From Acidimicrobiia bacterium (GTDB taxonomy: Bacteria > Actinomycetota > Acidimicrobiia > IMCC26256 > JAOSJL01), in assembly GCA_041394025.1 (NCBI GenBank), contig JAWKJA010000002.1:1454541-1518540 (forward strand): a stretch of 64,000 bases of DNA, in the 5' to 3' direction. The position numbers and the translations under genes were made by a program. Within the stretch, counting starts at the first letter, position 1. Every line of letters begins with the position of its first letter. Below the pieces are notes generated by a model. The model was given only the letters and a program-made list of their open reading frames with translations, was not told where the DNA came from and made no database searches. This document shows, one piece after another, positions 2,815 through 61,973 of the stretch.

Positions 2815-2884
2815 AGTCCCTGCACGCGTGCCGAGAATTCCCCGGGAACCACGACCACCGACCACCACAGCGAGGAACACACAC

Positions 2885-3601
2885 ATGGCTGACTGGAACG
2901 CACTCACAACCGAGCTGACGGAGGCGTTGAAGCTGTCGGCACCGCCGATCGCCATCACCTTCTCCGACACGCCACCCGACGGTGTGGAGCCCTTCGAGGA
3001 GCCGATGCCCGAAGCCCTCGACGGTCGCACCGGCCGGGTTCCCGCCGGCTGTGTGTTCTGGATGAAGGGTACGGAGCGCACCTTCTCCACGGTCGCCGAG
3101 GACCACGGCAACTGCTCGGTGGGGAGCCTCACGCACGGCTTCAAGACGCTCGACGAGGTCGCCGGCAACGGTGACGTGGCCACCCTCGTGGAGTCGGGCT
3201 GGGTCACGATGGATGTCGTACCGGAGATCCCGGTCGTGCAGGAGAAGCCGGGCACCGTCACCTACGGACCACTCGCCGAGACACCCGTGGACCCCGACGT
3301 GGTCATGCTGCGGGTGAACGGCAAGCAGCTCATGATCCTCTCCGATGCCATTCCCGGCCTGCGCATCGAGGGCAAGCCCCAGTGCCACATCGTGGCCATC
3401 GCCAAGGAGCAGGGTGAGCCCGCCGCCAGCGTGGGCTGCGCACTCAGTCGGGTCCGCACGGGAATGCCCGCCGCCGAGATGACCTGCACCATTCCGGGGC
3501 CGATGCTGGCCACGGTGGTGCAACAGGTCACCTCCATGGCCGACACCGACACGACGGTGGCGCGCTACGCCGCCCAGGACGCCGCGCGTTTCGAAGCCTG
3601 A
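2885..3601 (+). CDS. DUF169-like protein
   Basis: ATG at 2885, 9 nt after GAGGAA. The track start at 2753 overlaps the upstream gene and encodes an Arg/Pro-rich stretch, so it was rejected. The 238-aa product resembles DUF169/COG2043 proteins from memory. Confidence 0.55.
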   Translation: MADWNALTTELTEALKLSAPPIAITFSDTPPDGVEPFEEPMPEALDGRTGRVPAGCVFWMKGTERTFSTVAEDHGNCSVGSLTHGFKTLDEVAGNGDVATLVESGWVTMDVVPEIPVVQEKPGTVTYGPLAETPVDPDVVMLRVNGKQLMILSDAIPGLRIEGKPQCHIVAIAKEQGEPAASVGCALSRVRTGMPAAEMTCTIPGPMLATVVQQVTSMADTDTTVARYAAQDAARFEA

Positions 3602-10422: not shown

Positions 10423-11208
10423 ATGCCTTCCCCGCCCGACGTGCGGCGTGATGTCCGTTCCCCGCACGCCGTCGACCTGGATCACGTGTCGAAGGTCTTC
10501 GGCCACGGCCCCGATGCCGTCCACGCCCTCGACGACGTCACGCTCCGGGTGTCGCCGGGGGAGTTCGTGTGCCTCGTCGGGGCGTCGGGATGCGGCAAGA
10601 CGACGCTGCTGCACCTCGTGGCCGGGCTGGACACGCCGACGGCGGGCCGGATCGGGGTCCAGGGCGGGCGGGCGACGGTCATGTTCCAGGAGTCGGCGCT
10701 CTTCCCGTGGCTCACCGTGGCCGGCAACGTCGAGTTGGCGCTGACCCTGCGATCGATGTCGGCGACCCACCGGGCGGAGACGGTGGCGGCGCTGCTCGAC
10801 ATGGTCCACCTCACCGATTTTGCCGACAGGCGCCCCCACGAGCTCTCCGGCGGGATGAGCCAGCGGGTGGCCCTCGCCCGGGCTCTCGCCCAGCAGGCCG
10901 AGGTGCTCCTGATGGACGAGCCCTTCGGCGCCCTCGACGCGGTGACCCGCGACGTCCTCCACGAGGAGCTGTGCCGCCTGTGGGCCGACACGGGCCTCAC
11001 CGTGCTCTTCGTCACGCACAACGTGCGTGAGGCCGTCCGCCTGGGCGACCGCGTCGTGCTGCTGTCGAGCCGCCCGGGTCGCATCGTGGAGGAGTTCGAC
11101 GTCGACATCGACCGCCCCCGGAGGATCGAGTCGCACGAGGTCGCCGACCTCTCGGTCGAGATCACCGGGTGCCTCATGGCAGAGGTGAAGCGTCATGTGC
11201 CCCATTGA
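10423..11208 (+). CDS. ABC transporter ATP-binding protein (nitrate/sulfonate/taurine NitT family-like)
   Basis: Walker A GASGCGKTT, signature LSGGMSQRV, Walker B LLMDEPF. Confidence 0.85.
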   Translation: MPSPPDVRRDVRSPHAVDLDHVSKVFGHGPDAVHALDDVTLRVSPGEFVCLVGASGCGKTTLLHLVAGLDTPTAGRIGVQGGRATVMFQESALFPWLTVAGNVELALTLRSMSATHRAETVAALLDMVHLTDFADRRPHELSGGMSQRVALARALAQQAEVLLMDEPFGALDAVTRDVLHEELCRLWADTGLTVLFVTHNVREAVRLGDRVVLLSSRPGRIVEEFDVDIDRPRRIESHEVADLSVEITGCLMAEVKRHVPH

Positions 11209-12112
11209 GCCCGCGACGTCCGTCGACGGCCACTCCGGCAGCCACCGAGACGGTCACTCCGACGACGAGCTCACCGAGGAGCTGGCGGGCCTCGACGCGC
11301 TGGAAGTGGCCGTCCCACCGTCCCCCGGGCGGGCGACGCGCGCCTGGGCCGCCGCGTGGCCGAAACTGGCCGCTGCGCTCGTGGCGCTCGTCGCCTGGCA
11401 GCTGATCGTCTGGTCGGGGTGGCGCTCCACGGACGTCCTGCCCGGGCCCGGCCCGGTGTTCGAGACGCTCTGGGACGACCTGTGGAGCGGAGATCTCATC
11501 CTTGCCACGGCGCTCACGCTTCGTCGGGCCGTCCTCGGATTCGCACTCGGGATCGCCATCGGAACGCCGATCGGGATCGCCGTGGCGCGGGTGCGCGTCG
11601 TGCGGACGGCGGTCGGATCGGTCGTGACGAGTCTCCAGACCATGCCGTCGACCGCGTGGTTCCCGTTCGCGATCCTGCTCTTCTCGCAGTCGGAGACCGC
11701 CATCATGTTCGTGGTCGTGCTCGGCGCGGCTCCGGCCGTCGCCAACGGGCTCGTGGCCGGGATCGACCAGATCCCACCCAACCTCCTGCGTGCGGGACGC
11801 GTGCTCGGCGCGCGCGGGTGGACGGCTCTGCGTTACGTGGTGCTCCCGGCGGCCTACCCCCAGTACGTGGCGGGCCTCAAGCAGGGCTGGGCGTTCGCGT
11901 GGCGGAGCCTCATCGCCGGGGAGTTGATCGTGCAGGTGGCCGGCAGCGAGTCGATCGGTGTCCGGCTCCAGGACGCGCAGCGCAGCGACGACGCCACGGC
12001 GCTGCTCGCCACGATGGTCGTGATCCTCGTGATCGGGATCGCCGTCGACAGCCTCGGGTTCGGGACGCTCGAGCGACGGATCCGCCGCCGCTACGGGCTT
12101 GCGACCTCTTGA
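11195..12112 (+). CDS. ABC transporter permease (SsuC/TauC-like)
   Basis: Overlaps the ATPase gene by 14 nt. Six hydrophobic segments and a BPD_transp_1-like EAA loop region (LLRAGRVLGARGWTALRYVVLP). Its last 105 nt are duplicated at 16087-16191. Confidence 0.85.
   Translation: MCPIEPATSVDGHSGSHRDGHSDDELTEELAGLDALEVAVPPSPGRATRAWAAAWPKLAAALVALVAWQLIVWSGWRSTDVLPGPGPVFETLWDDLWSGDLILATALTLRRAVLGFALGIAIGTPIGIAVARVRVVRTAVGSVVTSLQTMPSTAWFPFAILLFSQSETAIMFVVVLGAAPAVANGLVAGIDQIPPNLLRAGRVLGARGWTALRYVVLPAAYPQYVAGLKQGWAFAWRSLIAGELIVQVAGSESIGVRLQDAQRSDDATALLATMVVILVIGIAVDSLGFGTLERRIRRRYGLATS
11992..12096. repeat. 105-bp direct repeat, left copy (attL-like; permease 3' end)
   Basis: Identical base for base to 16087-16191. 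The flanks diverge immediately on both sides. Confidence 0.85.
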
Positions 12113-12151
12113 GCCCTAGCCCAGCGGGCTCGCCGTGAATGACGTCGGCCC

Positions 12152-12397
12152 TCAGTCGCGCCGGCGGCGTTCTTCGTAGCGCCGCCGCCAGCGATGACCG
12201 ACACCACCCGGGCGGACAAGCCACCAGGTGAACAAGCCAGCACCGATCCCGAACCCAACGCACACGAGCGGGTAGTTGAAGTCGAACTGGAGCATGGAAT
12301 AGACGAAGCCGAACGCTCCGACGATCGAACCCGCTAGCCGCGGGTGTGCTGAAGCCCAGCGATACTCCTTCTCGTCGTACCTCTCGCGCTTCACCAC
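12152..12397 (-). CDS. candidate 2-TM immunity-like small protein (in frame with the RHS ORF; GTG at 12395-12397)
   Basis: VVKRERYDEKEYRWASAHPRLAGSIVGAFGFVYSMLQFDFNYPLVCVGFGIGAGLFTWWLVRPGG...RRRYEERRRRD: two hydrophobic helices and an Arg-rich tail. The stretch just upstream (about 12398-12560) has poor GC3 and Cys/Arg-rich translation, so it may be non-coding spacer. Confidence 0.3.
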   Translation of the reverse strand: MVKRERYDEKEYRWASAHPRLAGSIVGAFGFVYSMLQFDFNYPLVCVGFGIGAGLFTWWLVRPGGVGHRWRRRYEERRRRD

Positions 12398-13696
12398 CGC
12401 TACTTGCCCGACCCTGGGCACCGAACATCGACAAACGCGCCGACGGCGGTGACACCCAGATCCGAAATCGCTGCTGCTCGCGAGGCTCCTGCCGCACCCA
12501 AGGGCCCACCCACAGCTCCTCCAAAAAACGGGCAGCGCTGCCGCGCGTGCTACCCGCTGCCGCTTGCATGGCTTCTCGTCGAGTGCTTCAGAGGTCACGT
12601 TCAGGGCACTCCCCCCAGCTACAAGCGCTAGCCCGGCAGGCGGATTGGCGAACGTGACACCTGTGCCCAGCAAAACTCCACCAGTATCGACGGCCTTTGT
12701 GATCCCGACCCTATTTTCGCCGACCCAGTCGACGGCGTCGTCGAGGCAGTTCCCGAGGTCCCGCCACCCACATCCTCTGAGACCCATCGGGTCGACCAGA
12801 ACGCCGGGGCGGTTTCGGACGTAGGCGTATGACGACACCGACGGGCTGTCCGCAGAAGGTTGCAGTGGGTCGGTGGCGAGGAACCGGCCTGTCGATGGGT
12901 CGTACTGGCGGGCCCGAAGGTTGTAGAGGCCGGTCTCTTCATCAAGGTATTCGCCCGTGAAGCGCATCGGATTCGCCGGTGCTGACGGCTCGAGTTGTTC
13001 CGAACGACGCGCTGCACCGAATGGCTCATAGTCGTAGGAACATCGTGGCGTGCCGTCGGCGGAGGTGACGGCCGCAATGTTGCCGAGGTCGTTGCGGTGG
13101 AAGAACGACTCCCCGCCGGCTGCGCGCATCGAGATCGTGCTTTCGCCGAACACGTAGTCGCGCAACGGCACTCCGCCACCGTCGGACTCGCCAACCAGCT
13201 GTGGTACCGGGGCGTTCCGATCCCACAACGAGTAGGTCGTTCCGGTTTCGGTCGTGGCCGCGAGCCGGTTCCCGTCGGCGTCGTAGCTGTAGGCCACGTC
13301 GGTCGTGTGGGAACCCCCAACGAGTGAGGCGGACCCGGTGACGCCCGTGACGGTCTCCCCGATCTTGGTGACCTGGAGATCCCCATCGGTGATCGTTCCG
13401 TAGGCCTCGTAGTCTACGGCGCCTGACAGGGACAGGCTGACCTCGTCGTTGCCGGCACCGTTGTCGGTGACTGACCAGTCGAGGTTGACGAGTCCGAAGA
13501 AGCTGTAGGTGCTCGTCGCCCCATTCGCGCCGTCGGGTGTGACCTGTCCGAACCAGATCGGCACGGTGACGTCGACGCCAGCCTGTTGGTCGGTGACCCG
13601 AACGCTGCCGAAGTAGACCGGGAACAACCACAACGAGCGCACGTTGAACTCCACGTCGACCACTGAGCCCGTCGCCGGTTTCGACGCGCCCGTCAT
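12152..13696 (-). CDS. RHS repeat-associated core domain protein fragment with C-terminal polymorphic-toxin-like tail
   Basis: Contains YD-type repeats (VAYSYDADGNRLAAT, CSYDYEPFG). The RHS core end reads PMRFTGEYLDEETGLYNLRARQYDPSTGRFLATDP...VLVDPMGL, with DPxGL at 12779-12793. The 208 codons after it look heterogeneous. Only about 300 aa precede the core, so this is probably an orphan or truncated module. Confidence 0.75.
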   Translation of the reverse strand: MTGASKPATGSVVDVEFNVRSLWLFPVYFGSVRVTDQQAGVDVTVPIWFGQVTPDGANGATSTYSFFGLVNLDWSVTDNGAGNDEVSLSLSGAVDYEAYGTITDGDLQVTKIGETVTGVTGSASLVGGSHTTDVAYSYDADGNRLAATTETGTTYSLWDRNAPVPQLVGESDGGGVPLRDYVFGESTISMRAAGGESFFHRNDLGNIAAVTSADGTPRCSYDYEPFGAARRSEQLEPSAPANPMRFTGEYLDEETGLYNLRARQYDPSTGRFLATDPLQPSADSPSVSSYAYVRNRPGVLVDPMGLRGCGWRDLGNCLDDAVDWVGENRVGITKAVDTGGVLLGTGVTFANPPAGLALVAGGSALNVTSEALDEKPCKRQRVARAAALPVFWRSCGWALGCGRSLASSSDFGSGCHRRRRVCRCSVPRVGQVAVVKRERYDEKEYRWASAHPRLAGSIVGAFGFVYSMLQFDFNYPLVCVGFGIGAGLFTWWLVRPGGVGHRWRRRYEERRRRD

Positions 13697-13756
13697 TCGG
13701 TTGGCCAGATCATAGGTATAGGCCGTAGCGCCGGCGGCCGCAGCGCGCGACCAGAC

Positions 13757-13999
13757 CTAACGCCTGCGCCGCCGGTCGCCGAGCAGCAGGGCGGCGATAC
13801 CTGTACCGCACCAAACCGCCACGGCCACCGCAATCTTCCACCGGGCATCTTCTGACGGCCTGGCTTGGCCGAGCACCCAAGCCACCACCAGTGCACCAAG
13901 AGCTCCAGTCAAGAACAAGAAGACGGTACGTACCTTCCTCTCGAGCACGGGGCAATCGAGAGAATGGAAGAAACCCGGACCGCAGGTCTTGCAGCCCAT
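13757..13999 (-). CDS. small 2-TM protein with N-terminal CxxC...C motif (immunity-like)
   Basis: ATG at 13997-13999: MGCKTCGPGFFHSLDCPVLERK, then two TM helices and a tail GDRRRRR. Same architecture as the ORF at 12152-12397. Lower-GC codons. Lies directly upstream of the RHS fragment. Confidence 0.4.
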   Translation of the reverse strand: MGCKTCGPGFFHSLDCPVLERKVRTVFLFLTGALGALVVAWVLGQARPSEDARWKIAVAVAVWCGTGIAALLLGDRRRRR

Positions 14000-14063
14000 G
14001 ACTACTTGCCGCAACTCGGTTCTGGAGGTCCCCCGCTCTGACGGACAGGTTGGGTGTGGGTGA

Positions 14064-14937
14064 TCATGGGGCGTTGGTGGTTTCGTAGTCGAGGGGGCTG
14101 TGTCCGGCGTTGTAGCTGTGCCGGCGGCGGGGGTTGTACCAGGTTACGATCCATTCAGAAGATCGCGTGGGCGAGCTGGTCGCGGGTGTCCCAGTGGTGC
14201 TGGTCCAACAGCTCGCGTTGCAGGCTCGAGAAGAAGACCTCGGCGACGGAGTTGTCATACGCGTCGCCGATGGATCCCATCGATCCGAGCAGGCCGGCGT
14301 TGCGGAGCCGGTTGCCGAACAGCCATGACGTGTAGATCGACCCGTGATCCGAGTGTGCAACGGTTTGGCCTGCTGGAGGTCGCCGCCGCCAGGTAGCCAT
14401 CTGGAGTGCATCCGCGGCGAGCTCTGTGCGGATGTGATCCGCGATGGACCAGCCAACGACCCGGCGGGACCAGGCGTCGACCACAGCGGCGAGGTAGACG
14501 GTGCCTTCATCGGTGCGGTGCTCGGTGACGTCCATCACCCACAGGCGGTCGGGACCTTCGGGGTCGAAGCGTCGCTGCACGAGGTCGGGGTTCGGGTCCG
14601 TGCCGTCGCGGCGGGTGCAACCGTTCTTGCCTCGCCGGGACGGGTAGTGGATCCCCACCGCGCCGCAGTCACGCATCCAGCGTTCCACCTGGGTCTTGGA
14701 GCACCGCCGGCGCATCCCCAAGCGGAGCTCCTGAAGAACCCGAGGTGACCCATACGAGTGCCGAGACATCGTCCAAATGTCGAACACCGTGTTGGCCATC
14801 CAGGCGTCGTCGAGTTCGGCGTCAGTGACCGGTTCGGATCGACGCTGGAAAAAGCCCGCTCTCGACACCCCCATCACACGGCAGCACACCGCGACGGGCA
14901 GATCCGAGCAACGCTCGGCGATGAAGGTGTAGATCAT
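14064..14937 (-). pseudogene. IS3 family transposase OrfB (rve/DDE integrase core) with a 3'-terminal frameshift
   Basis: DDE core blocks LWVMDVTE and HSDHGSIYTS. This frame stops at 14155 after ...QLAHAIF. The conserved tail EWIVTWYNPRRRHSYNAGHSPLDYETTNAP continues in another frame down to 14064, which implies one extra nucleotide near 14155-14160. Confidence 0.8.
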
Positions 14938-15224
14938 TTTGGGAGGACGTTCTCCTGGGCGAAGTACGCCGCCGCAGGCTTGAGGATCTCGTTCTCCATC
15001 TTCGCCACGCGCAACTCACGGCGCAGCTTCACCAGCTCCTCGCGCTCAGCAGTGCTGAGACCACCAGAGCGCCGTCCCTCGTCGAGGTCAGCTTGGTGCA
15101 TCCAGTTCCGCAAGCAGCTGTCGGAGATCCCAAGATCGGTTGCGATCTCCGCCACGGGCTTCTCGCGCAACCGGGCCAACTCCACGGCTCGCTGACGAAA
15201 CTCCGGTGGGTGGGGTGCAGGCAT
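14934..15224 (-). CDS. IS3 family transposase OrfA (HTH)
   Basis: MPAPHPPEFRQRAVELARLREKPVAEIATDLGISDSCLRNWMHQ plus a leucine-zipper-like tail. Ends in CCAAAATGA, overlapping the orfB start. Confidence 0.85.
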   Translation of the reverse strand: MPAPHPPEFRQRAVELARLREKPVAEIATDLGISDSCLRNWMHQADLDEGRRSGGLSTAEREELVKLRRELRVAKMENEILKPAAAYFAQENVLPK

Positions 15225-15356
15225 CTGGACTCCTTCCCGAGACGACCCACAGTCGCCTCAGCATCGGTGTCCGTCAACCCGGGGGACCTCCACCTTCCTG
15301 ACCGGGGTTCGAGGTGACAGATCAGTGGTTCACCCTGGGTTTGATGGAGACTCGGT

Positions 15357-15482
15357 TCATTGGGTTCCAACCGTGTTGTGGTCGGTCTGTTGACCAGCGT
15401 AGAACGCTGCTTCGAGTTCTGCTGGTGGCATGTCGTGGCAGTGGCCGTGGAGACGCTGGTGGTTGATGGGATGAAGGAGCGG
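15357..15482 (-). pseudogene. remnant of a second rve-type transposase C-terminus
   Basis: Minus-strand translation ...PLLHPINHQRLHGHCHDMPPAELEAAFYAGQQTDHNTVGTQ* resembles the YNxxRxH...PAEFE tail of integrase-core transposases. No upstream catalytic domain is present. Confidence 0.35.
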
Positions 15483-15556
15483 GTCCTGCGCTCCTCGTGA
15501 GCCCGGCGTGCATGCTCGGGGGCTCACACCATGTTCACGAGGATGGGAGGGCCCTC

Positions 15557-16086
15557 ATGGCAGGGTACGTTCCGATTGATCTCCATCGCCGCCGTTCGGT
15601 GGTGATGCACATCGACTCCGCCGGTGAGATGCTGGGTTGGAAGCGGGTCGCCAACGAACCGGACGCGCTGGTGGCTGAGGTGCTCTAGCACGGCGAGTCT
15701 CCCGAGGTGGCGATTGAAGCCACCTACGGGTGGTACTGGGCGGTCGACGCGCTCTCGGCAGCCGGGTGCGAGGTGAAGCTGGTCAACGTTGCTGCGGTGC
15801 GCGGGTTCGAGAATCGCCGGGTGAAAAATGACGTGCGGGACTGCGAGCTGTTGGGCCAGTTGATGCGCACGAACACGCTGCCCGAGGCGTGGATGGCCCG
15901 GAGCGAGGTACGCGAGCAGCGGGAGCTGGTCCGCTATCGGGCCAAGCTGGTGGCTGTGCGTACCGGGTCCAAAGCCCAGGTCCACTCGGCGTTCGCCAAG
16001 CTGGGCATCCAGGCTTGCTGGTCGGACATGTTCGGTCCCTCGGGCCGCCAAGAACAGGAACGTGAGCCGTGCCTCGAACGTGAAGG
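15557..16086 (+). pseudogene. IS110 family transposase, N-terminal DEDD domain only (in-frame TAG at 15686-15688; 3' truncated at the repeat)
   Basis: MAGYVPIDLHRRRSVVMHIDSAG...AEVL*HGESPEVAIEATYGWYWAVDALSAAGCEVKLVNVAAVRGFENRRVKNDVRDCELLGQLMRT...LVRYRAKLVAVRT matches the IS110 N-domain pattern. The C-terminal domain is absent. The ORF runs directly into the 105-bp permease repeat. Confidence 0.7.
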
Positions 16087-16191
16087 CGCCACGGCGCTGC
16101 TCGCCACGATGGTCGTGATCCTCGTGATCGGGATCGCCGTCGACAGCCTCGGGTTCGGGACGCTCGAGCGACGGATCCGCCGCCGCTACGG
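16087..16191. repeat. 105-bp direct repeat, right copy (attR-like)
   Basis: Identical to 11992-12096. Followed by ggtctcgccaccccgtag (GLATP*), which is synonymous with but differs from the tail after the left copy. Confidence 0.85.
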
Positions 16192-16225
16192 TCTCGCCAC
16201 CCCGTAGCGCGACGAAACCGCGCCG

Positions 16226-16693
16226 TCAGACTTCCTCGACGACGACCGACTCCATGACGTCGCCGACCTCGATGGCCTGGGCGACGTCGAGACCCTCGGT
16301 GGTGTAGCCGAAGAGGTTGTAGTCCTTCGACAGCTTGCTCGTGCAGTCGTCGATGCAGATGAAGAACTGCGAGCCGTTGGTGTTCGGCCCGGCGTTGGCC
16401 ATGGCCACCGCACCCAGTGTGTACTCACCGGTGACGGGCTCGTCCTCGAACTGGTAGCCGGGGCCGCCCGTGCCGTCGCCGTCGGGGCATCCGCCTTGCA
16501 CGACGAACTCGGGCACGACTCGGTGGAACGTGAGCTTGTCGTAGTAGCCGTCGCGGGCGAGGCCGACGAAGTTGGCGACCGTGCGGGGTGCCAGCGTGGG
16601 GTCGAGATCCATCACGATGTCGCCCTTGCTCGTGGTGACGGTCACGCGGTAGGTGGCGTCCTCGTCGATGGGATGGTTCGTCTGCGGTTCCAC
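16226..16693 (-). CDS. peptidyl-prolyl cis-trans isomerase, cyclophilin type
   Basis: FHRVVPEFVVQGGCP, GAVAMANAGPNTNGSQFFI. Confidence 0.9.
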   Translation of the reverse strand: MEPQTNHPIDEDATYRVTVTTSKGDIVMDLDPTLAPRTVANFVGLARDGYYDKLTFHRVVPEFVVQGGCPDGDGTGGPGYQFEDEPVTGEYTLGAVAMANAGPNTNGSQFFICIDDCTSKLSKDYNLFGYTTEGLDVAQAIEVGDVMESVVVEEV

Positions 16694-16768
16694 GGAAGCT
16701 CCTGGGGCGTCGGAGCCTTCACGCTACCGGGGCGTCGGCACCTGCCTCGACTTGCGAACAGCGATGCG

Positions 16769-17542
16769 TCAGCCTGCAGGAACCGCGGCCCGCGCCTCCT
16801 CGGCGACCTGGCGTACCTGGTCGGCCAGGGGGCCGTCGGGATCGAGCTCGAGGTACCGGTCGAACTCGACGACCGCTCCGGCAGGGTCGTCCATGCCCCG
16901 CAGGAGGATCAATCCCCGGAAGAAGTGGGCGTCGGCGAAGTCGGGATCGAGTGCGACCGCAGCGTCGACGCGTTCCAGGGCCTCGTCGGGGAGGTCGGCC
17001 AGGAACACGATCCACCCGCCGTAGGCGCGCGCTTCGACGTTCGTGGGGTCGAGGGCCACGACCTCGTCGTAGGCCATGAGTGCGGCGGCAGGGTCCGTGG
17101 GCGCCAGGAAGCGCGCCAGCTCGAGATGCGCCTCGGGGTCGTCGGGGTTGCGCTCCACCGCCTCCTCGAGGGCCTCACGCGTCGCTGCGGCGCTGTCTTC
17201 GGCGGTCTGCTCGTTGCCGGTGGCGGTCCCCCCCTCCGTACGATCCCCCAGCGCGTTGGCGAGCAGGATGCCCGCCACGACCGCGAACGCCAGGATGCCG
17301 CCGGCCACGGCGAGCGTTCGCGCGGTGCTGCGCGGACGCTCCGTCGTACCCGGGTCCTCACCGGAACGTTCCGCCGCATCGATGGCCCGCAGTACCGCTG
17401 CAGCACGCGCGGTGTAGTCGTCGCGGAGCCGTTCGTATGTGTCCTCGTCGATGTCGTCGTCGGCACGCTCGCGCTCCAGGTCGTCGAGGGACCGAAGGAG
17501 GAAGTCGCGCTCGTCGTAGAGGTCACCGAGCGCCGGCTGCAC
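16769..17542 (-). CDS. ccmI: c-type cytochrome biogenesis protein CcmI/CycH-like (TM plus TPR)
   Basis: GTG at 17540-17542 chosen, overlapping the ccmH end by 20 nt. Acidic helical N-terminus, one TM (LAVAGGILAFAVVAGILLA), TPR-like repeats, and last position in the ccm operon. The longer track ORF runs antisense-like into ccmH. Confidence 0.6.
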   Translation of the reverse strand: MQPALGDLYDERDFLLRSLDDLERERADDDIDEDTYERLRDDYTARAAAVLRAIDAAERSGEDPGTTERPRSTARTLAVAGGILAFAVVAGILLANALGDRTEGGTATGNEQTAEDSAAATREALEEAVERNPDDPEAHLELARFLAPTDPAAALMAYDEVVALDPTNVEARAYGGWIVFLADLPDEALERVDAAVALDPDFADAHFFRGLILLRGMDDPAGAVVEFDRYLELDPDGPLADQVRQVAEEARAAVPAG

Positions 17543-18008
17543 CGGGGTCCTCCTCCTGTCGGCGCTCGCGCTCGACGAGCTCACGGTCCTCTGCCGTCGG
17601 CGTGTAGCGGGGCTCACGGCGCCACCGCGTGAGCGCGACCACGAGGACTCCCCCACCGACCAGGAGCCCGGCGACCGGCAGGAGCCAGACGAGCAGGCCC
17701 ACACCGCTCCCCGGCGGTTCGAGCAGGATCCACTCGCCGTACCTGTCGACGTACGCCTGGCGGATCTCCTCGTCGGTCTGCCCCTCGTCGATACGGCGTC
17801 GGACGTCGTCGCTGATGGCCCGCGCCGTCGACGACGGGCTGTCGGCCACCGAGAGCCCCTGGCAGGTCGGGCACCGCAACTCCTCCGTGAGGGCCTCGTG
17901 GCGCGCCTCCGGAGACGTGTCTCCCCCGCCCGAATCGCTCCACGCGACGGCGACCGTCGCCACGACGAGAGCGGCGAGCGCCGCCCAGGGCAGCCAGCGG
18001 CGCATCAC
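17523..18008 (-). CDS. ccmH: cytochrome c-type biogenesis protein CcmH
   Basis: LRCPTCQG motif, signal peptide, and a C-terminal TM. Confidence 0.85.
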   Translation of the reverse strand: MMRRWLPWAALAALVVATVAVAWSDSGGGDTSPEARHEALTEELRCPTCQGLSVADSPSSTARAISDDVRRRIDEGQTDEEIRQAYVDRYGEWILLEPPGSGVGLLVWLLPVAGLLVGGGVLVVALTRWRREPRYTPTAEDRELVERERRQEEDPGAAGAR

Positions 18009-18607
18009 CCGATTCCCCGCGCGCGATCGAGCATCGCCTCGAGGTCGTCGACGTCGACCTCGCCGAGCTGCTTGGCGACGACGACGCCGGCGGGATCGAT
18101 GGCGTAGGTCTCGGGTTGCCCCGTGGTGGCGAAGTCGAGCGCGGCCCGAGCACCCGGATCAGACGTGATCGTCCAGTCGACGCCCTTCTCCTCGACCCAT
18201 GCGAGTGCGGCCTCGTCGGTGTCGTCCCGCACGATGCCGACCATCGCGAAGTCCGCGTCCTCGGCGTGCCGGTCGTAGAACTCGGCCAGCGCGTCGTGCT
18301 CCGTACGACACGGGAGGCACCAGGAGTTCCAGAAGTTCACGATCACGGCCTTGCCCGCCAGCGACTCGTTGCTCACGGTCTCCGCGGGCGGCTCTGCGTC
18401 CACCACGGCAGGAGAGAGCACGGGCAGGTCGAACTCCGGCGCGGGCCCACCGAGATCCGGCCCACCCTCGAACGTGGGGTCGGTGTTCACCTGCGTCGCC
18501 AGCACGACGGCCAGGACCACGACGACGACTCCCGCCGCCGACGCCGTCCACAGCACGACCCGCGAGCGGCGTGGCCGACCCTCCGGCGACGGCGCACCGG
18601 TCGTCAC
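18005..18607 (-). CDS. ccmG: thiol:disulfide interchange protein CcmG/DsbE
   Basis: GTG at 18605-18607 forms a GTGA overlap with the ccmF stop. One TM, then a thioredoxin fold with FWNSWCLPCRTEH. Confidence 0.85.
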   Translation of the reverse strand: MTTGAPSPEGRPRRSRVVLWTASAAGVVVVVLAVVLATQVNTDPTFEGGPDLGGPAPEFDLPVLSPAVVDAEPPAETVSNESLAGKAVIVNFWNSWCLPCRTEHDALAEFYDRHAEDADFAMVGIVRDDTDEAALAWVEEKGVDWTITSDPGARAALDFATTGQPETYAIDPAGVVVAKQLGEVDVDDLEAMLDRARGIG

Positions 18608-20673
18608 GCCGGTACCTCCGGTGTCTCGGGGAGTGCGTCCGTTGCCACGTCGGAGCGGCGGACGCGGTGCAGCGCACTCTTCGCCGACGGGCCGACGGCG
18701 ACCAGGGTCCCGAGGAACATCACGCCGCCGCCGATCCAGAGCCACAGGACCATCGGGTTCACGGCCACGCCGAGCGTGACGCGCCCCGACTCGTTGGGCG
18801 ACGAGATCAACGTGAGGTACACGTCGCGCGTGACGCCGGTGCGCACCGAGGGGGTGCCGATACCCTGGGTGCTGTTCGGGAACGTGGAGATCGCAGGCGC
18901 GTAGACACCGAGGTCGTCGCCCCCCCTTTCCACCCGCACACGTGCCGAGCTCGTGGCCTTCTGTGCGGTCGTCGACGTCTCGCTCCCGAGATAGGTGACC
19001 GTGTAGCCCGCCACCGTGGCCGACTCACCCTCGGCGAGCCGGACCTCGCGGCTGGTCGACCAGTGGGCGCCCACCGAGATGGCGAGGGCGACGAGCACCA
19101 CCCCGACGTGCACGACGAGGCCGCCGTACCTGCGCGGGTTGCCGGTGACCGTGCGGAGAAGTGCCGTCGGGACCGCCTCGTCGTGGCCACGGCGACGCGA
19201 CCGCACCGCCACGACGAACTGCTGCACGATCCCGGCGAGGGCGAAGGCGGCGAGGCCGAAGACGAGGATCTGGGCGACGCCGCGGGTGCCGAACAGGACG
19301 GCGACGGCCATGGTGGCCGCCCCGGTCCAGGCCGGCACCCGGAACCGCCGTTGGAGCACGTCACCCGAGGCCGCACGCCACGGCAGAGCGGGGGCGGCGG
19401 CCATGAGGAAGAGGAGCGCCAGCCCGATGGGAAGAGTCATCCGGTCGAAGTACGGCTCACCGACCGACAACTGCCGCTCCTGGAAGGCCTCGACGAGCAG
19501 CGGGAACACGGTGCCGAGCAGCACGACGAAGGCGAACGCCGCGAACAGGAGGTTGTTGGCCAGAAACGCCGACTCGCGCGACACGATGCTGTCGATCCGA
19601 CCCGGCGAGCGCAACAGGTCGCCGCGCCACGCGATGAGCCCGATCCCCACGACGGCGGTGATGCCGAGGAACGCGAGCAGCATCGGCCCGATGCCCGACT
19701 CCGTGAAGGAGTGGACGCTGTTCACCACACCCGAACGCGTGAGGAACGTGCCGAGGATCGTGAGACAGAACGTGGCGATGAGAAGCGACAGGTTCCAGAC
19801 CCGGAGCATCCCCCGGCGCTCCTGCACCATCACGGAGTGGATGTAGGCCGTGCCGGTGAGCCACGGAAGGAGTGACGCGTTCTCGACGGGGTCCCACGCC
19901 CAGTAGCCGCCCCAGCCGAGGACCTCGTAGCTCCACCATCCGCCGAGGACGATCCCCGCTGTGAGAAAACCCCAGGCCAGCACAGCAGCGCGGCGGGTCT
20001 CGATGAGCCAGCCCTCGCCGAGCCGGCCGGTGACGAGCGCCGCCACGGCGAACATGAACGGCACGGTGAAGCCGACGTAGCCCAGGTACAGCATCGGCGG
20101 ATGGACCGCCATGAGAGGGTGGTTCTGGAGCAGCGGGTTCGGTCCCGGGCCGTCGGGGGGAACGACACCCGACACGAGCCGAAACGGGTTGGCGGGACCC
20201 AGGACGAGAAGGAAGAAGAAGAGCGCCACGACGAGACCCGTGATCGTCGCCCACGCGACGAGCGGGTCGGTGGCACGGTCGCGGAACCGCCACGCCGTGT
20301 GGGCCAGGTAGCCGGCGAGGATCAGGACCCACAGGAGGATCGAGCCCTCGAGCGACGCCCACAGGGACGCCACGGTGTAGAAGACCGGCGTGGCGCGCGA
20401 GCCGTTGGCGGCCACGTACTCCAGGGAGAAGTCGTGGCTCAGCAGTGCCCATTCCATGACGAGCGCTGCCACGACCGCGGCCACGAGCACCGCGAACACG
20501 AAGCGGCGCCCCAGCAGCAGGAGGCGGTCGTCGCCGCGGTGCAAACCGACGCCGAGGGCCGTGATGCCGAGAGCACAGGCGGCGGCACCCCACACGAGGG
20601 CGCCGTATCCGATCGCCGCCTTCACCGGCGCAGGCTGGGGGCGCCGGGGCCCCGACGACTCATGGGGCGTCAC
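18604..20673 (-). CDS. ccmF: cytochrome c heme lyase subunit CcmF
   Basis: 689-aa polytopic protein with WWD domain WGGYWAWDPVENASLLPW. The start may be the internal GTG at VKAAIGY. Confidence 0.9.
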   Translation of the reverse strand: MTPHESSGPRRPQPAPVKAAIGYGALVWGAAACALGITALGVGLHRGDDRLLLLGRRFVFAVLVAAVVAALVMEWALLSHDFSLEYVAANGSRATPVFYTVASLWASLEGSILLWVLILAGYLAHTAWRFRDRATDPLVAWATITGLVVALFFFLLVLGPANPFRLVSGVVPPDGPGPNPLLQNHPLMAVHPPMLYLGYVGFTVPFMFAVAALVTGRLGEGWLIETRRAAVLAWGFLTAGIVLGGWWSYEVLGWGGYWAWDPVENASLLPWLTGTAYIHSVMVQERRGMLRVWNLSLLIATFCLTILGTFLTRSGVVNSVHSFTESGIGPMLLAFLGITAVVGIGLIAWRGDLLRSPGRIDSIVSRESAFLANNLLFAAFAFVVLLGTVFPLLVEAFQERQLSVGEPYFDRMTLPIGLALLFLMAAAPALPWRAASGDVLQRRFRVPAWTGAATMAVAVLFGTRGVAQILVFGLAAFALAGIVQQFVVAVRSRRRGHDEAVPTALLRTVTGNPRRYGGLVVHVGVVLVALAISVGAHWSTSREVRLAEGESATVAGYTVTYLGSETSTTAQKATSSARVRVERGGDDLGVYAPAISTFPNSTQGIGTPSVRTGVTRDVYLTLISSPNESGRVTLGVAVNPMVLWLWIGGGVMFLGTLVAVGPSAKSALHRVRRSDVATDALPETPEVPA

Positions 20674-21124
20674 CCTCCGACGTCGCCGCGTCCGACGACG
20701 GCTCCTCGTCGGTGTTCACCTCGGGCGGTGAGTACTCGTTGCCGTGGTTGATGAGGATCCGGTCGGAGCGAAACGTCACGAAGTCGTCGGACCACTCCCC
20801 TTCGGTCACCACGGGGGCGCCCTCGGCGAACAGGTCGGGCGGGTCGCCACGGTGGACGACCTCGACGGTCGCGGTGCCGTCGGTGACCTCGAAGGTGACG
20901 CCGTCGTCGGTCTCGGCAACGGTCCCGGGCACGACCTCACCGGCGAGGCGCACCCGTCCGCTGTCCTGTTCCGCCACGGCCTCCGACACGGTCCGGAAGT
21001 AGACGATGTTGCCGCGCAGGCCTCCGAACACGAGGAAGGCCACCGCGCCCACACAGGCGAGTGCGGCTGCGACGTAGAGCCACCGTCGACCCCGGACGGC
21101 GCGCGGCGAGGCCTGCGACGTCAC
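20660..21124 (-). CDS. ccmE: cytochrome c maturation heme chaperone CcmE
   Basis: GTG at 21122-21124, 6 nt after GGGAGG. TM, then an OB fold. Heme-binding HxxxY is present as NHGNEY. The longer track ORF is Arg-rich upstream. Confidence 0.85.
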   Translation of the reverse strand: MTSQASPRAVRGRRWLYVAAALACVGAVAFLVFGGLRGNIVYFRTVSEAVAEQDSGRVRLAGEVVPGTVAETDDGVTFEVTDGTATVEVVHRGDPPDLFAEGAPVVTEGEWSDDFVTFRSDRILINHGNEYSPPEVNTDEEPSSDAATSEGDAP

Positions 21125-21276
21125 GGGCGCCCCTCCCGCGCCCGGACACGGGTGAGGTCCTCGTCGGTCATCGAGGCGCGGACCCTCCGGAAGCGCCACG
21201 CCATCCACGCGACATACGCGACGAGGACGACCACCGTGACGACGTACCCCGCGAGCACGTACCCCGCATCGCTCAC
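21121..21276 (-). CDS. ccmD: heme exporter protein CcmD (51 aa; below the ORF-track cutoff)
   Basis: VSDAGYVLAGYVVTVVVLVAYVAWMAWRFRRVRASMTDEDLTRVRAREGRP*. Single TM. GGGAGA lies 6 nt upstream. GTGA overlaps with both the ccmC stop and the ccmE start. Confidence 0.6.
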   Translation of the reverse strand: MSDAGYVLAGYVVTVVVLVAYVAWMAWRFRRVRASMTDEDLTRVRAREGRP

Positions 21277-22058
21277 CGGTCGTCTCCCACACCCGCGACC
21301 GCCGGGCCGGCCGACGCGGCGCTGTTCGCCGCACCGGCATCGGCGCTCGCGATCCGATCCGCTATCGCGGCCTCGAGCTCACGCTCGTCGTGGCCCTCCT
21401 CGAGGCGGGCGAGTTGCACCCGACGCGCCATGAGGTAGCCGTAGGCGAGCGTGAAGGCCACGACGGCGAATGCCAGCGTCCAAGCCATCGTCCCCTCGAT
21501 CTGCGCGTCGAGCTCGGGGTTGAACACGGTCGCCTCCTGGTGGAGGGTGCGCCACCAGTTCACCGAGAAGTGCACGATCGGCACGTCGACGAAGGCGATG
21601 AGCGCCGCGATCGCGGCGCGTCGGGCCCGCACGTCGGGATCGGCCGGCACGCGCCGCAGCGCCAGGTAGCCGAGATACAGGAAGAACAGCACCGCGGTGG
21701 TGACGAGCCGGGCGTCCCACACCCACCACGTTCCCCACACGGGACGGCCCCAGAGCGAGCCGAGCACGAGCGTGAGCCCCGTGAACACCACGCCGATCTC
21801 GGCCGACGCACCGGCGAGAAGATCCCAGTCGAGGCGGCGCGTGCGCGGCCAGAGGTAGAGAAGTGACGCCACGGCGGTGACGAAGAACGCCAGGTACGCC
21901 AGCCACGCCGCCGGCACATGGACGTACATGAGCCGTTGCGCGTCGCCCTGCACGGCGTCGGCGGGCGCGACCCCCAGCGCGAGAACGCCGAGGACGAACA
22001 GGGCCAGCAGCGTGACGAGACCCAGGATGTTCACCGCGGGCCGGGCCAGCGAGATCAT
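21273..22058 (-). CDS. ccmC: heme exporter protein CcmC
   Basis: ATG at 22056-22058 (MISLARPAV) forms an ATGA overlap with the ccmB stop. WWD motif WGTWWVWDARL. Acidic/Ala-rich C-terminal extension of about 50 aa. Confidence 0.9.
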   Translation of the reverse strand: MISLARPAVNILGLVTLLALFVLGVLALGVAPADAVQGDAQRLMYVHVPAAWLAYLAFFVTAVASLLYLWPRTRRLDWDLLAGASAEIGVVFTGLTLVLGSLWGRPVWGTWWVWDARLVTTAVLFFLYLGYLALRRVPADPDVRARRAAIAALIAFVDVPIVHFSVNWWRTLHQEATVFNPELDAQIEGTMAWTLAFAVVAFTLAYGYLMARRVQLARLEEGHDERELEAAIADRIASADAGAANSAASAGPAVAGVGDDR

Positions 22059-22729
22059 GCGTCCTCCAACAGGGAGCCGAAGGCGAGAACCCCCAGCCCC
22101 ACGTACAACACGGCGAACAGCCCGAGGAGCTGGACCCACGGCCATGCCTCGGACGGCACGCCGTCGAGCCCCGCCTCGAACGCCCGCGTGGCCCCCAGCA
22201 TGACCGGCGCAACCACGGGAAGCAGCAACAGGGGCACCAGCGTCTCGCGCGTGCGCAGGCCGGCGGCGAGCACCCCGAAGAGCGTACCGGTGGCCGCGAC
22301 GCCGACGGTCGCGGCCAGGGCCGTGAGGGCGAGGATCCCGAGGCTTCGCAGCGCCATGTCGTAGAAGACGACGACACCGACACCGAGCACGACCTCCAGA
22401 GCCAGGAGCTCGATGCTCACGGCGAGCGCCTTGCCGAGGAACACGGACGCACCGTCGATGCCGGAGAGGCGAAGTCCGTCGAGAGCGCCGTGCTCGGTCT
22501 CCAGTGCGAAAGAGCGTGAGACCGCGAGCACCGCGGCCAGCAGTACGGCGACCCAGAACAGCCCGGGGGCCACGACGGGGAGCAGGCCGCGGTCGGGGTC
22601 GAGGGCGAAGGCGAACAGCAGCAGCACGACGGCGCCGAACGGCAGGACCTGGTTGAGCGTGACCCGTGAGCGGGCCTCGATGCGCAGGTCCTTGGCGGCG
22701 ACGAGCCACACCTCACGGACGAGGCTCAT
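22055..22729 (-). CDS. ccmB: heme exporter permease CcmB
   Basis: 224-aa six-TM protein in the ccmB position, with an ATGA overlap with ccmA. Confidence 0.85.
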   Translation of the reverse strand: MSLVREVWLVAAKDLRIEARSRVTLNQVLPFGAVVLLLFAFALDPDRGLLPVVAPGLFWVAVLLAAVLAVSRSFALETEHGALDGLRLSGIDGASVFLGKALAVSIELLALEVVLGVGVVVFYDMALRSLGILALTALAATVGVAATGTLFGVLAAGLRTRETLVPLLLLPVVAPVMLGATRAFEAGLDGVPSEAWPWVQLLGLFAVLYVGLGVLAFGSLLEDA

Positions 22730-23391
22730 GGGCGTGGTCCCGGTGCGTCGCCCGTCGGTGCGGCCGCGACGGGGTGCGCGCGGCCGCCGACGACGCGGAC
22801 CTCGCGGTCCGCCAGCGACCGCACGCGCTCGGTCTCGTGCGAGGCGATGATGACGGTCGTGCCGTGATCGGGCGCCGCGCGCACGATCCCGTCGAGAACG
22901 GCCCGCCCATCAGGGTCGAGCCCGGCGTGGGGCTCGTCGAGGAGCAGCAGCTCGGGGTGGCCGGTGAGCGCCACGGCCAGTGCGAGGCGGCGGCGCTGGC
23001 CGGCCGACAGCTTCTGGTGGGTGACGGCCGCCTGCGCGTCGAGTCCGACCCGCGAGAGATGGTCGTCCGCCGACGAGGCGTCGTTTCCCGCTGCCCGCGC
23101 GGCGAAACGCAGGTTCTCCCGCACGGTCAGGTCGTCGTAGCACAGCGTGTCGTGCGCCATGAGCCCGAGGAGGTGTCGGTGGCTTCGCCGGTCACGGGCA
23201 AGGTCGACACCCAGGACCTCGGCCTCACCCGACCGCAACCGGACGAGGCCGGCCAGCAACCGCAGGATCGTGGTCTTGCCCGCTCCGTTGGGGCCGCTGA
23301 GCAGCACGATCTCGCCTCGGCTCACGTCGAGGTCGGCGCCCGCCAGAGCGGGGAAGCGACCGAGGAGACAGACAGCGGCGCGGAGGCGCAC
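22726..23391 (-). CDS. ccmA: heme exporter ATPase CcmA
   Basis: GTG at 23389-23391 chosen; TTG at 23403 is possible. Walker A GPNGAGKTT, signature LSAGQRRRL, Walker B LLLDEP. The longer track ORF upstream is not credible. Confidence 0.85.
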   Translation of the reverse strand: MRLRAAVCLLGRFPALAGADLDVSRGEIVLLSGPNGAGKTTILRLLAGLVRLRSGEAEVLGVDLARDRRSHRHLLGLMAHDTLCYDDLTVRENLRFAARAAGNDASSADDHLSRVGLDAQAAVTHQKLSAGQRRRLALAVALTGHPELLLLDEPHAGLDPDGRAVLDGIVRAAPDHGTTVIIASHETERVRSLADREVRVVGGRAHPVAAAPTGDAPGPRP

Positions 23392-23566
23392 AGCGAGCGG
23401 CAACGGACCCTCAAGGGCCGGGAAACGGTGCCGAAAGTGTAAGGAGCGCCCCGTGAACCCGTCGAACCGGCATGTGGACGCCGCCGCCGGACCGTGGGAG
23501 GTCGCACGACCCGGTGGTGAGCCGGACTGCCCCGAATGTCCCGGTAGGATTCGCCCCGTGCCCGAG

Positions 23567-24766
23567 ATGGACGACATGCCCGACGAGACCACCGCGTCCG
23601 AGACCACTGCGTCGTCCTCGGCGCCCGTCGCAACGGCGTCGACGGCCACGGCCACCCCGACCACGACGACGGAGCGCCCGGCAGCAGACGGCGACACCGG
23701 CCCCTCCCGGCAGCCGGGGCGCACCGGCGACGGCGGCTCCGGCGGCGACGAGCCTCCCGGGGAGACACCCGACCCCGAATCCGGCTCCTCCCGGCCCCGC
23801 GACACCGGCATCCGGGCGGTGGTCGGCTTCATCGGCCGTGGCCTCATCACGCTCGGAATCCTCGTTCTCCTGTTCGTCGCCTACCAGCTCTGGGGAACAG
23901 CAATCTACGAGGCGCGCGCCCAGAACCAGCTCGAGACCGACTTCGAGCAGCGTCTCCAGGAGGTCGAATCGAACGCCACGGAGAACCAGGCGCCCGACGA
24001 CCTGGGCGGGGCCGAGGGTGAGAACGGATCGTTCCTCGACGAGCCCGTTCCCGCCTCGTCGTTCACCGAGGGTGAGGCCGCCTTCAAGATCGAGATCCCC
24101 GATGCCGGTGTCGACAGGATCGTCGTGCAGGGCGTGTCGATCCCCGACCTGCGCAAGGGCCCGGGCCACTACGAGTTCACCCCGATGCCCGGTGAGATCG
24201 GTAACGCCGCCATCGCCGGTCACCGCACCACCTACGGCCAGCCCTTCCACAACCTCGACAAGCTCGAGCCGGGCGACGAGGTCACCACCACGACCCTCAG
24301 CGGCACCTTCGTCTACGACGTCGTGAAGACCGAGGTCGTCCAACCCACCGACGTCGACGTGCTCGAGCCCCCCGGCAAGAACACCTACGTCGGCGACGAA
24401 ATCCCCGAGGGCGGGGCGATGCTCACGCTCACCACCTGCAACCCGAAGTACTCGGCGGCGGAGCGCCTCGTGGTGTTCGCGGCGCTCAACCCCTCGAAGA
24501 GCCCCGAGGCGCAACCGCCGAGCGTCGACGTCACCCTGGGGGCAGAGCGCACCACGATCGACTCGGCGGGCCTGTCGGGTGAGTCCGGGAGCCGGATGCC
24601 CACCTACGTCTTCGGCCTGGTCGTGGCCGCCGTGGGGGCGCTGTGGTACTTCGCCTTCCGGCGCTGGCGGCACTGGTACACGTGGTTCGCCGGCGCCATT
24701 CCGTTCCTGGCCGTTCTCTTCTTCTTCTACACCTACCTCGAGCGCGTCCTCCCCGGAAACTACTGA
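23567..24766 (+). CDS. class E-like sortase (membrane-anchored transpeptidase)
   Basis: ATG at 23567. Low-complexity N-terminus, one TM, catalytic His (IAGHRTTYG), TLxTC motif MLTLTTCNP, and C-terminal TM segments. Confidence 0.85.
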   Translation: MDDMPDETTASETTASSSAPVATASTATATPTTTTERPAADGDTGPSRQPGRTGDGGSGGDEPPGETPDPESGSSRPRDTGIRAVVGFIGRGLITLGILVLLFVAYQLWGTAIYEARAQNQLETDFEQRLQEVESNATENQAPDDLGGAEGENGSFLDEPVPASSFTEGEAAFKIEIPDAGVDRIVVQGVSIPDLRKGPGHYEFTPMPGEIGNAAIAGHRTTYGQPFHNLDKLEPGDEVTTTTLSGTFVYDVVKTEVVQPTDVDVLEPPGKNTYVGDEIPEGGAMLTLTTCNPKYSAAERLVVFAALNPSKSPEAQPPSVDVTLGAERTTIDSAGLSGESGSRMPTYVFGLVVAAVGALWYFAFRRWRHWYTWFAGAIPFLAVLFFFYTYLERVLPGNY

Positions 24767-24774
24767 GGCAAGGA

Positions 24775-24818
24775 CCCGAGGCGAGGCATGGGAAAGGCGT
24801 CAGCCCCGCATCGGGGCT
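24775..24818. repeat. 44-bp direct repeat, copy 1 (contains hairpin AGCCCCG-cat-CGGGGCT at 24802-24818)
   Basis: cccgaggcgaggcatgggaaaggcgtcagccccgcatcggggct. Copy 2 lies 101 bp downstream and differs at 1 position. Confidence 0.8.
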
Positions 24819-58285: not shown

Positions 58286-58426
58286 GCCGCACAGGCTATG
58301 ACCGCCGGGGTCGTCGCCCCTTCTCTTCGTCGCGAGAACTGCGCCCGTCTTTCGGCGTCAGCCGGTCCGGTGCACTCCTGTCGGTGACGGATCGATAGAT
58401 TCCTGGCTCATGTCCAGGAGGCCACG

Positions 58427-59215
58427 ATGATTCTCGACCGCTTCGACCTCAACGGAAAGGTGGCTGTTGTCACCGGAGCCGGGCGCGGAATCGGTGAGCG
58501 CTCGGCAACCGCGCTCGCCGAGATCGGCGCCGACGTGGTGTGCGCGGCACGCTCGCAGGATCAAATCGACGACACGGTGGCCCAGATCGTCGACCGGGGG
58601 CGGCGGGGTCTGGCCGTTCCGACCGACGTGAACCAACGCGCCGACCTGGAAGGCCTCATCGACGCCACGATGGAGGAGTTCGGCCGCATCGACGTTCTCG
58701 TGAACAACGCGGGTGGATGGCCGCCCCAGGAGTTCCTGAACACGAGCGACTCCGACTTCGAAGAGGCGTTCCACTTCAACGTCACGACGGCGTTCCTGCT
58801 CACACGTCTCGCCGCGCCGAAGATGGCGGAGTCCGACGGAGGCGCCGTCGTGAACATCTCGTCGCGCACGGCAAGCATCATCCTGCGGGGCTTCGTCGCC
58901 TACGGCACCGCCAAGGCCGCGCTGTCCTTCATGACGAGAAGCCTCGGTGCCGAGCTGGCCCCGAAGGTACGGGTCAACGCGATCGAGGTGGGGGCGGTGG
59001 CCACTTCCGCTCTCGAATACGTCAAGACCGACGAAGCCATCGAACGGCAGCTCGTCGACACAACGCCGATGGGGCGCATCGGTGAGGTCGACGACGTCGC
59101 CGCCATGCTCGTCTACCTGGCGAGCCCCGCTTCGCAGTGGGTCACCGGGAAGATCATGCAGGTCGACGGAGGCGTCGAGACACAGCAGTTCGAGTTTCCT
59201 CCGGCCGACCTCTGA
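58427..59215 (+). CDS. SDR family oxidoreductase (FabG-like)
   Basis: VTGAGRGIG, NNAG, YGTAKAA. Confidence 0.9.
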   Translation: MILDRFDLNGKVAVVTGAGRGIGERSATALAEIGADVVCAARSQDQIDDTVAQIVDRGRRGLAVPTDVNQRADLEGLIDATMEEFGRIDVLVNNAGGWPPQEFLNTSDSDFEEAFHFNVTTAFLLTRLAAPKMAESDGGAVVNISSRTASIILRGFVAYGTAKAALSFMTRSLGAELAPKVRVNAIEVGAVATSALEYVKTDEAIERQLVDTTPMGRIGEVDDVAAMLVYLASPASQWVTGKIMQVDGGVETQQFEFPPADL

Positions 59216-59296
59216 GCCGACCCGCCCGGGCCCGGAGGCGGCGGGTGCCCGTCCCGGGGCACAATGACGTCACATTGACCGCCGCCCGGAGCAAAC

Positions 59297-60388: not shown

Positions 60389-60397
60389 GAGGACTCC

Positions 60398-61618: not shown

Positions 61619-61659
61619 GCGACGCCCGGGAGAGGCCGACCGACCGGAAGGAACGAGCC

Positions 61660-61938: not shown

Positions 61939-61973
61939 CAGCAGGCCTCGCGTCGGCTGCCGGCCCGGAGTCG

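Follow-up and report, generated by a model that had tools for sequence, protein, structure and literature searches.

Homology-facilitated and double illegitimate recombination have been described in Acinetobacter, Streptococcus pneumoniae and Pseudomonas stutzeri, and insertion at the 3' end of a protein-coding gene is known from e14 and phage 21 at icd in Escherichia coli. At icd, the incoming near-synonymous end keeps the gene intact, and the native 3' fragment remains as a far direct repeat, icdC. The e14 element has an integrase, and the differences between icd and icdC are spread along a 163-bp duplicate (PMC6379469, PMC13626634). Homology-facilitated illegitimate recombination is an established way of capturing foreign DNA, albeit a rare one, and orphan Rhs and effector-immunity arrays have been proposed as its products (PMC5361080, PMC6382021). 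In the present study, we analysed a 64,000-nt stretch of DNA (the window) from the metagenome-assembled genome (MAG) of an Acidimicrobiia bacterium (GCA_041394025.1, contig JAWKJA010000002.1, positions 1,454,541 to 1,518,540), in which an island of about 4 kb lies between two identical 105-bp copies of the 3' end of a NitT/TauT-type ABC permease gene.

The locus resembles e14 and phage 21 at icd in that the insert lies at the 3' end of a protein-coding gene, and it resembles e14 also in its outcome, with a replaced gene end on one side and the native 3' fragment as a direct repeat on the other. Unlike e14, which has an integrase and site-specific excision, the island has no integrase and its far boundary lies in a dead IS110 copy; and while the icd differences run along 163 bp, both 105-bp copies are host sequence here and the last 16 nt alone are foreign. 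With homology-facilitated illegitimate recombination the locus shares one homologous and one non-homologous joint and no need for a dedicated recombinase. The reported illegitimate cases differ from it, since there recipient DNA is mostly replaced or deleted, whereas 105 bp of recipient DNA were duplicated at this locus, and no donor markers were found upstream of the joint. The cargo, an RHS-type module with possible orphan immunity genes, is comparable to orphan Rhs and type VI secretion system effector-immunity cases. It shares with orphan rhs-CT/immunity arrays a core ending in DPxGL, a unique C-terminal region, small flanking membrane open reading frames (ORFs) and insertion sequence (IS) debris; unlike those arrays, there is no full-length rhs gene in the 64-kb window, and no family match speaks for a toxin or an immunity function.

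Results

The direct repeat and the two gene ends

The coordinates of the features are collected in Table 1. Positions 11992-12096 and 16087-16191 form an exact direct repeat of 105 nt with a spacing of 4095 bp, as the initial annotation of the window had reported, and this repeat is the sole similarity of the island to the remaining 64-kb window. The left copy belongs to the permease gene (11195-12112), of which it is the in-frame 3' end; the right copy continues the reading frame of the truncated IS110 gene, in an ORF (15707-16207) that the NCBI annotation gives as a 166-aa 'transposase' (P0160). Right after the repeated block the two sequences diverge into the tails GGGCTTGCGACCTCTTGA on the left (GLATS*) and GGTCTCGCCACCCCGTAG on the right (GLATP*), with 7 of 18 codon-aligned nt differing. 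These details of the initial annotation, in-frame copies and differing tails included, were all reproduced.

The permease is now a hybrid, with resident sequence to 12096 and a foreign tail at 12097-12112 (...RRRYGLATS*). It is still full length, with one Pro-to-Ser change at the last residue, and the NCBI protein of this MAG (MEZ5170428.1, P0001) is 100% identical to it. The right copy, with the GLATP* tail behind it, is the displaced native gene end; fused to the IS110 remnant, this 3' fragment is most likely non-functional.

ARAGORN reported a 93-nt tRNA-Gly(ACC) at 11731-11823 (+) within the permease coding sequence, most likely a false positive in view of its odd length and anticodon and the conserved coding sequence around it. 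This candidate was rejected as an att target, as it lies inside the conserved coding region, 170 bp upstream of the repeat.

Table 1 Features of the island and of the adjoining host genes in the window.
Feature	Position	Strand	Remarks
ABC ATPase gene	10423-11208		directly upstream of permease
NitT/TauT-type ABC permease	11195..12112	+	ORF, PF00528 (BPD_transp_1), 305 aa
Left repeat copy, resident sequence	11992..12096	+	in-frame permease 3' end
Inserted foreign DNA, 3,990 bp	12097..16086	.	absent from L085-L089, L084, L082, L081; lower GC
RHS repeat-associated core ORF	12152..13696	-	514 aa (NCBI: 503 aa, P0123)
85-aa ORF, two predicted hydrophobic segments	13757..14014	-	just upstream of RHS ORF
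IS3-family element, 1,270 bp	14023..15292	-	25-nt inverted repeats 14023-14047, 15268-15292
264-bp spacer	15293..15556	.	from IS3 to IS110 start codon
IS110-family (DEDD) transposase, N-terminal ~177 codons	15557..16086	+	PF01548, NF033542
Right repeat copy	16087..16191	+	with 16192..16207 = displaced native permease 3' end
Native permease tail ...GLATP*	16192..16207	+	cyclophilin gene 18 bp further on, as in relatives
Cyclophilin-type peptidyl-prolyl isomerase	16226..16693	-	PF00160; native convergent permease neighbour

The empty site in the same species and in relatives

If the island had been inserted, a permease gene ending in GLATP* should elsewhere be followed directly by the cyclophilin gene, as the initial annotation had predicted. 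Such an empty site was present at 100% identity in Logan short-read contigs from several public samples (L085-L089), and the same arrangement was seen in L084, L082, L081, L001, L065 and L067. In the Logan contigs, window positions 10911-12096 are joined to 16192-16387; the contigs also match 16087-16387 at 100%, with both stretches overlapping in the block, so that they correspond to the window minus 12097-16191. Over 1,487 bp, the flanks of the island showed 0 substitutions against the empty-site allele. The protein P0121, which is encoded on Logan contigs and belongs to the same 90% cluster, equals the window permease except for its GLATP end. Although they came from different runs, all five contigs begin at 10911, and their ends fall into a 15-bp range (16372-16387), which suggests common graph branch points on both sides, caused for example by strain variation or by conserved ATPase/cyclophilin motifs.

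Close relatives were drawn from the protein search and the 90% cluster listing, while a permease search of genome contigs gave a best match of 62% identity among the matches listed and informs on family-level synteny only. In L084 (89% aa identity) and in L082 and L081 (84-86%), the permease stop codon lies 18 bp from the convergent cyclophilin gene or overlaps it, and the order ATPase, permease, cyclophilin, TPR, CcmH, TlpA is kept in the distant Acidimicrobiia L001, L065 and L067. Of the two tails, the native right one is the closer to that of the nearest relative, L084. Because the empty site exists at 100% identity and permease and cyclophilin are adjacent in relatives, the insertion is derived, strain-specific and recent.

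The island genes were found in this MAG alone, and the allele lacking the island in several samples. When metagenomes were scanned for exact copies of the right joint and of the foreign side of the left joint, each of the two scans gave 0 matches, and no close homologues of the island proteins were found in protein databases. Exact-protein look-ups of the cyclophilin, the permease, the 85-aa ORF and the IS3 OrfA found none in an index without the source MAG and carry little weight. No second element or duplication of this kind was found in six close relatives and about 80 further loci among the matches listed.

The intergenic spot between permease and cyclophilin is variable. L083 has a 144-aa multi-transmembrane (multi-TM) ORF with no Pfam family there (2699-3285), and L006 (2674-3547), L008 (2764-3587) and L022 (10838-11667) have a minus-strand gene of about 275 aa that is DUF2236/MpaB-like by eye. 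No duplicated permease end was found in these four loci. Past the cyclophilin gene, the window carries a conserved cytochrome c maturation cluster on the minus strand (16769-24800), consisting of TPR, CcmH, a TlpA/ResA-like thioredoxin, CcmF, CcmE, CcmC, CcmB and CcmA; it is syntenic with L081 3626-10272 at about 76% DNA identity.

A resident block next to a foreign tail

Next to the empty-site allele, the two repeat copies and the two tails behave differently. The resident allele is matched by both 105-bp copies with 0 differences. Between the left tail and any known tail, the resident one included, 6-9 of 18 positions differ, a divergence of the order found between species. Among relatives, the divergence of block and tail goes together: pairs with 3 tail differences have 3-8 block differences, and pairs with at least 6 tail differences have 9-22. 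The contrast is also seen at the codon level, where the synonymous third positions of the G-L-A codons are changed in 3 of 3 cases in the left tail and in 0 of 35 codons of the block. Both repeat copies are resident in origin, and the left tail is foreign in origin.

Because the left tail is diverged while the block before it equals the resident allele, the step from 12096 to 12097 is a recombination joint between resident and foreign DNA. Directly before this joint, at the end of the permease gene, lies the patch ATCCGCCGCCGCTACGG, which is conserved even in distant relatives. The switch occurs right after ATCCGCCGCCGCTACGG and the reading frame is kept, so that the left joint is homologous and in register, as is characteristic of illegitimate or homology-facilitated insertion. 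The first 16 nt of the insert are the end of an orthologous permease gene that has diverged. Since this tail encodes G-L-A-T-S-stop in register, it would derive from a permease orthologue, and the insert would once have lain directly downstream of such a gene. A donor of the insert would be recognisable by the sequence TACGGGCTTGCGACCTCTTGAGCCCTAG. A possible donor was P0122/L090, a relative with the same GLATS ending; it was rejected because 6 of 18 nt distinguish its tail from the left tail of the window, and because its serine and stop codons are different.

The right joint is of another kind. The insert ends in the interior of the IS110 gene (about residue 177) and is linked there to permease position 11992; no similarity was found upstream of the joint, and the IS110 homologues found have at most 65% identity. 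An IS110 insertion as the source of the right joint was rejected, since the breakpoint is at no IS end but within the N-terminal half of the transposase gene.

In a reciprocal exchange, whether between attP and attB or through a RecA crossover with a circle, the repeat pair consists of one host copy and one element copy. At this locus both copies are host sequence, and the repeat therefore behaves as a target duplication. Judged from these alleles, the repeat most likely arose by duplication of host DNA, rather than from an att copy brought in by an element.

Composition and contents of the island

The island was claimed to be poorer in GC, at 57-67% against about 75%. The direction was right and the size overstated: the island (12115-16086) has 64.7% GC, against 70.5-70.6% in the flanks and 71.7% in the permease gene, and it is the lowest-GC 4-kb stretch of the window. 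A check of codon usage agreed with this, with GC at third codon positions of 0.70-0.82 in the island ORFs and 0.85-0.93 in neighbouring genes. A second, milder GC dip was seen at 58400-64000 (about 67.6-67.8% in 4-kb windows), where the genes encode an SDR, an APH-family kinase, two P450 and an inositol-1-phosphate synthase, with no mobile-element genes among them.

Pfam and NCBIfam scans of all island ORFs matched only IS3, IS110 and the RHS core, in agreement with the initial annotation, and detected no integrase or integrase remnant, which it had likewise stated. The small ORFs with two TM segments that it listed are present and have no family. An Rfam scan of 11000-17000 gave no match.

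The RHS ORF contains an RHS core domain (TIGR03696, 76 bits, cut-off 32.5) at aa 223-306, which ends in DPMGL, and its match to the RHS_core model NF041261 is confined to positions 1159-1261 of 1261. It has the core with a terminal PxxxxDPxGL motif, followed by a variable C-terminus, that marks an RHS / YD-repeat polymorphic toxin; the full YD-repeat shell of about 1,200 residues or more, with an N-terminal delivery domain, is absent from this 514-aa ORF. The C-terminal region of about 208 aa has no homologues and no family, and its last ~80 aa (12152-12394) have the appearance of two TM helices. The NCBI protein P0123 is 100% identical to the ORF, and the next-best homologue has 51% identity over about one third.

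On the minus strand at 12152-12394, the RHS ORF runs stop-free through an Arg/Cys-rich, out-of-frame-looking stretch, followed by the two-helix segment and an Arg-rich tail. This end of the ORF may be a fused or frameshifted toxin/immunity pair. The 85-aa ORF matched no family in the Pfam and NCBIfam scans, and an exact copy of it was not on record; it could encode an orphan immunity protein. The RHS-core ORF and the two small membrane ORFs may together make up an orphan toxin/immunity set. The idea of paralogous immunity genes was rejected, as the two segments with two TM helices show no mutual similarity.

The IS3 element carries OrfA (14934-15224) and OrfB (14155-14937), with a 1-nt frameshift that moves the last ~30 codons of OrfB into an ORF at 14064-14157. 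Its family matches are NF033516 (221 bits, positions 91-344 of 369), PF00665 and PF01527, and its flanks show no clean target-site duplication (TTC vs CCT). In the IS110 fragment, the reading frame is interrupted by a TAG at 15686-15688, and of the usual protein of about 340-400 residues the C-terminal half is missing. Clear homology stops at about 16051, leaving the origin of the last 35 nt uncertain. The IS3 frameshift (14150-14160, minus strand) and the IS110 TAG may reflect real decay, or consensus errors if the MAG comes from noisy long reads.

The spacer between the two IS had no hidden Markov model (HMM) match and no Rfam match; it is possibly the left non-coding end of IS110 or an rve-like C-terminal remnant on the minus strand. 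The 'rve remnant' that had been placed there (about 15357-15527) found no HMM support, and its only trace is a YNHxRxH-like motif.

Discussion

Taken together, these results suggested, with a little better than even probability, that the locus is the scar of a recent, strain-specific and non-site-specific insertion, by which about 3,990 bp, taken from the orthologous locus in a related species, was joined in through short-homology/illegitimate recombination or template switching. The donor would be a related but different Acidimicrobiia lineage, with an RHS/IS-rich region just downstream of its orthologous permease gene. The left joint would have formed within the conserved ATCCGCCGCCGCTACGG patch, a short identity allowing foreign and resident DNA to pair, and for this reason the joint would be in frame and the gene would end in donor codons (GLATS*). 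The right joint would be illegitimate: an arbitrary point of an IS110 copy that was dead before the event would have been linked to position 11992 of the permease gene, which precedes the left joint by 105 bp. The host template would have been left at 12096 and re-entered at 11992, and the 105 bp would be present twice because the re-entry point lies upstream of the exit point. Such a duplication would be expected after template switching at a broken replication fork, or when two ends are joined to different sister chromosomes, and the event would be a variant of homology-facilitated or double illegitimate recombination. The cargo would have been decayed already on arrival and not self-mobile. 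For the donor, for the way in which the DNA was taken up and for the enzymology of the joints, this account is an inference.

Several points weigh against this explanation. Neither the protein databases nor the two exact metagenome scans yielded a donor, and its context is deduced from a 16-nt tail. Microhomology at the right joint is not scorable, the best IS110 match having 65% identity. Classical homology-facilitated illegitimate recombination usually deletes and seldom duplicates recipient DNA, and no documentation was found in the literature consulted for the sister-chromosome/template-switch version that is required here. There are no donor-type substitutions upstream of 12097, and any homologous exchange was therefore resolved at the very end of the homology. 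Finally, both junctions come from a single MAG assembly.

The initial annotation had read the locus as an integrative element with a replacement 3' end, bounded by attL and attR. The foreign insertion and the replacement tail stood, while the attL/attR reading was not borne out. A decayed site-specific element of the e14/phage 21-at-icd type would have recombined its attP with the permease 3' end and supplied the tail; the integrase and attR-proximal DNA would have been lost later by IS activity and deletion, and the 105-bp identity would be an att core or would have been evened out by gene conversion. The topology is indeed that of e14/icd, with a native 5' part joined to an element 3' end and the native 3' fragment at the far end. 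The foreign tail is clearly homologous to the permease tail, so that the DNA had earlier adjoined a permease gene, and other inserts occupy the same spot in L083, L006, L008 and L022. An empty attB-like site is also present (L085-L089, L084, L082, L081), which is equally expected of any insertion type. We nevertheless consider this origin unlikely, since the island holds no integrase or fragment of one, its right boundary is an arbitrary point in the IS110 ORF (about residue 177) and not an element end, and a block borne by the element would be expected to show 9-22 differences, where both copies have 0. The 1,487 bp of identical flanks also leave little time for decay in place, because it would need two IS gains, integrase loss, truncation, a nonsense codon, a frameshift and gene conversion, and no second instance at this gene was found among the relatives or databases searched. 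Still further from our expectation, and very improbable, is the remnant of an undescribed mobile element that targets the permease 3' end without a tyrosine or serine integrase, makes an unusually long (105-bp) target duplication and comes with a gene end to replace that of the target; its mechanism could, for example, be replicative or RNA-guided in the manner of IS110.

A Campbell-type integration by RecA would involve circular DNA, for example a plasmid or an excised circle, with a short permease 3' fragment, and heteroduplex repair to the host sequence. Its single crossover would leave the shared segment as a direct repeat on both sides of the insert, as observed here, and the IS110/permease joint could then be the point of circle closure. 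It would require that all donor differences of the block were corrected in both copies while the adjacent tail stayed untouched on both sides, and 105 bp at roughly 90% identity is a poor RecA substrate; as the insert holds no plasmid or replication genes either, we regard this course as improbable. We give slightly less credit again to an assembly artefact, in which the contig would join reads of two strains or species and the duplication and the island position would be unreal. Both junctions and all island genes occur in this one MAG alone, and short-read assemblies of the same species show the empty site only, as such an error would predict. Against it, the right joint has no sequence overlap from which an overlap-based assembler would make it. 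The contig also comes back to the locus that it left, just 105 bp upstream of the exit point, as real insertions typically do and chimeric joins do not. The reading frame continues across the left joint, which sits at an orthologous position, and the region is part of a 1.6-Mb contig.

If the locus is the scar of a non-site-specific insertion, the kind of event is already known, namely an illegitimate IS/RHS-rich insertion with target duplication, and no general concept is changed. The locus does call for caution, as a perfect repeat, a low-GC island and a replacement gene end together mimic attL/attR; it is the comparison with the empty-site allele and with relatives that reveals a target duplication instead. 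The perfect 105-bp repeats make the insert unstable, for if RecA recombined them, the island would be lost and the GLATP allele exactly re-formed. Because such a loop-out regenerates the GLATP allele, some of the 'empty' cells in the population could be revertants. For this uncultured Acidimicrobiia lineage, the locus offers a clean natural case of non-mobile foreign DNA fixed in the chromosome, with the states before and after both preserved and 100% identity in the flanks. One joint was placed at a conserved gene end and left the gene intact, the other was arbitrary, and a 105-bp duplication of host DNA remained.

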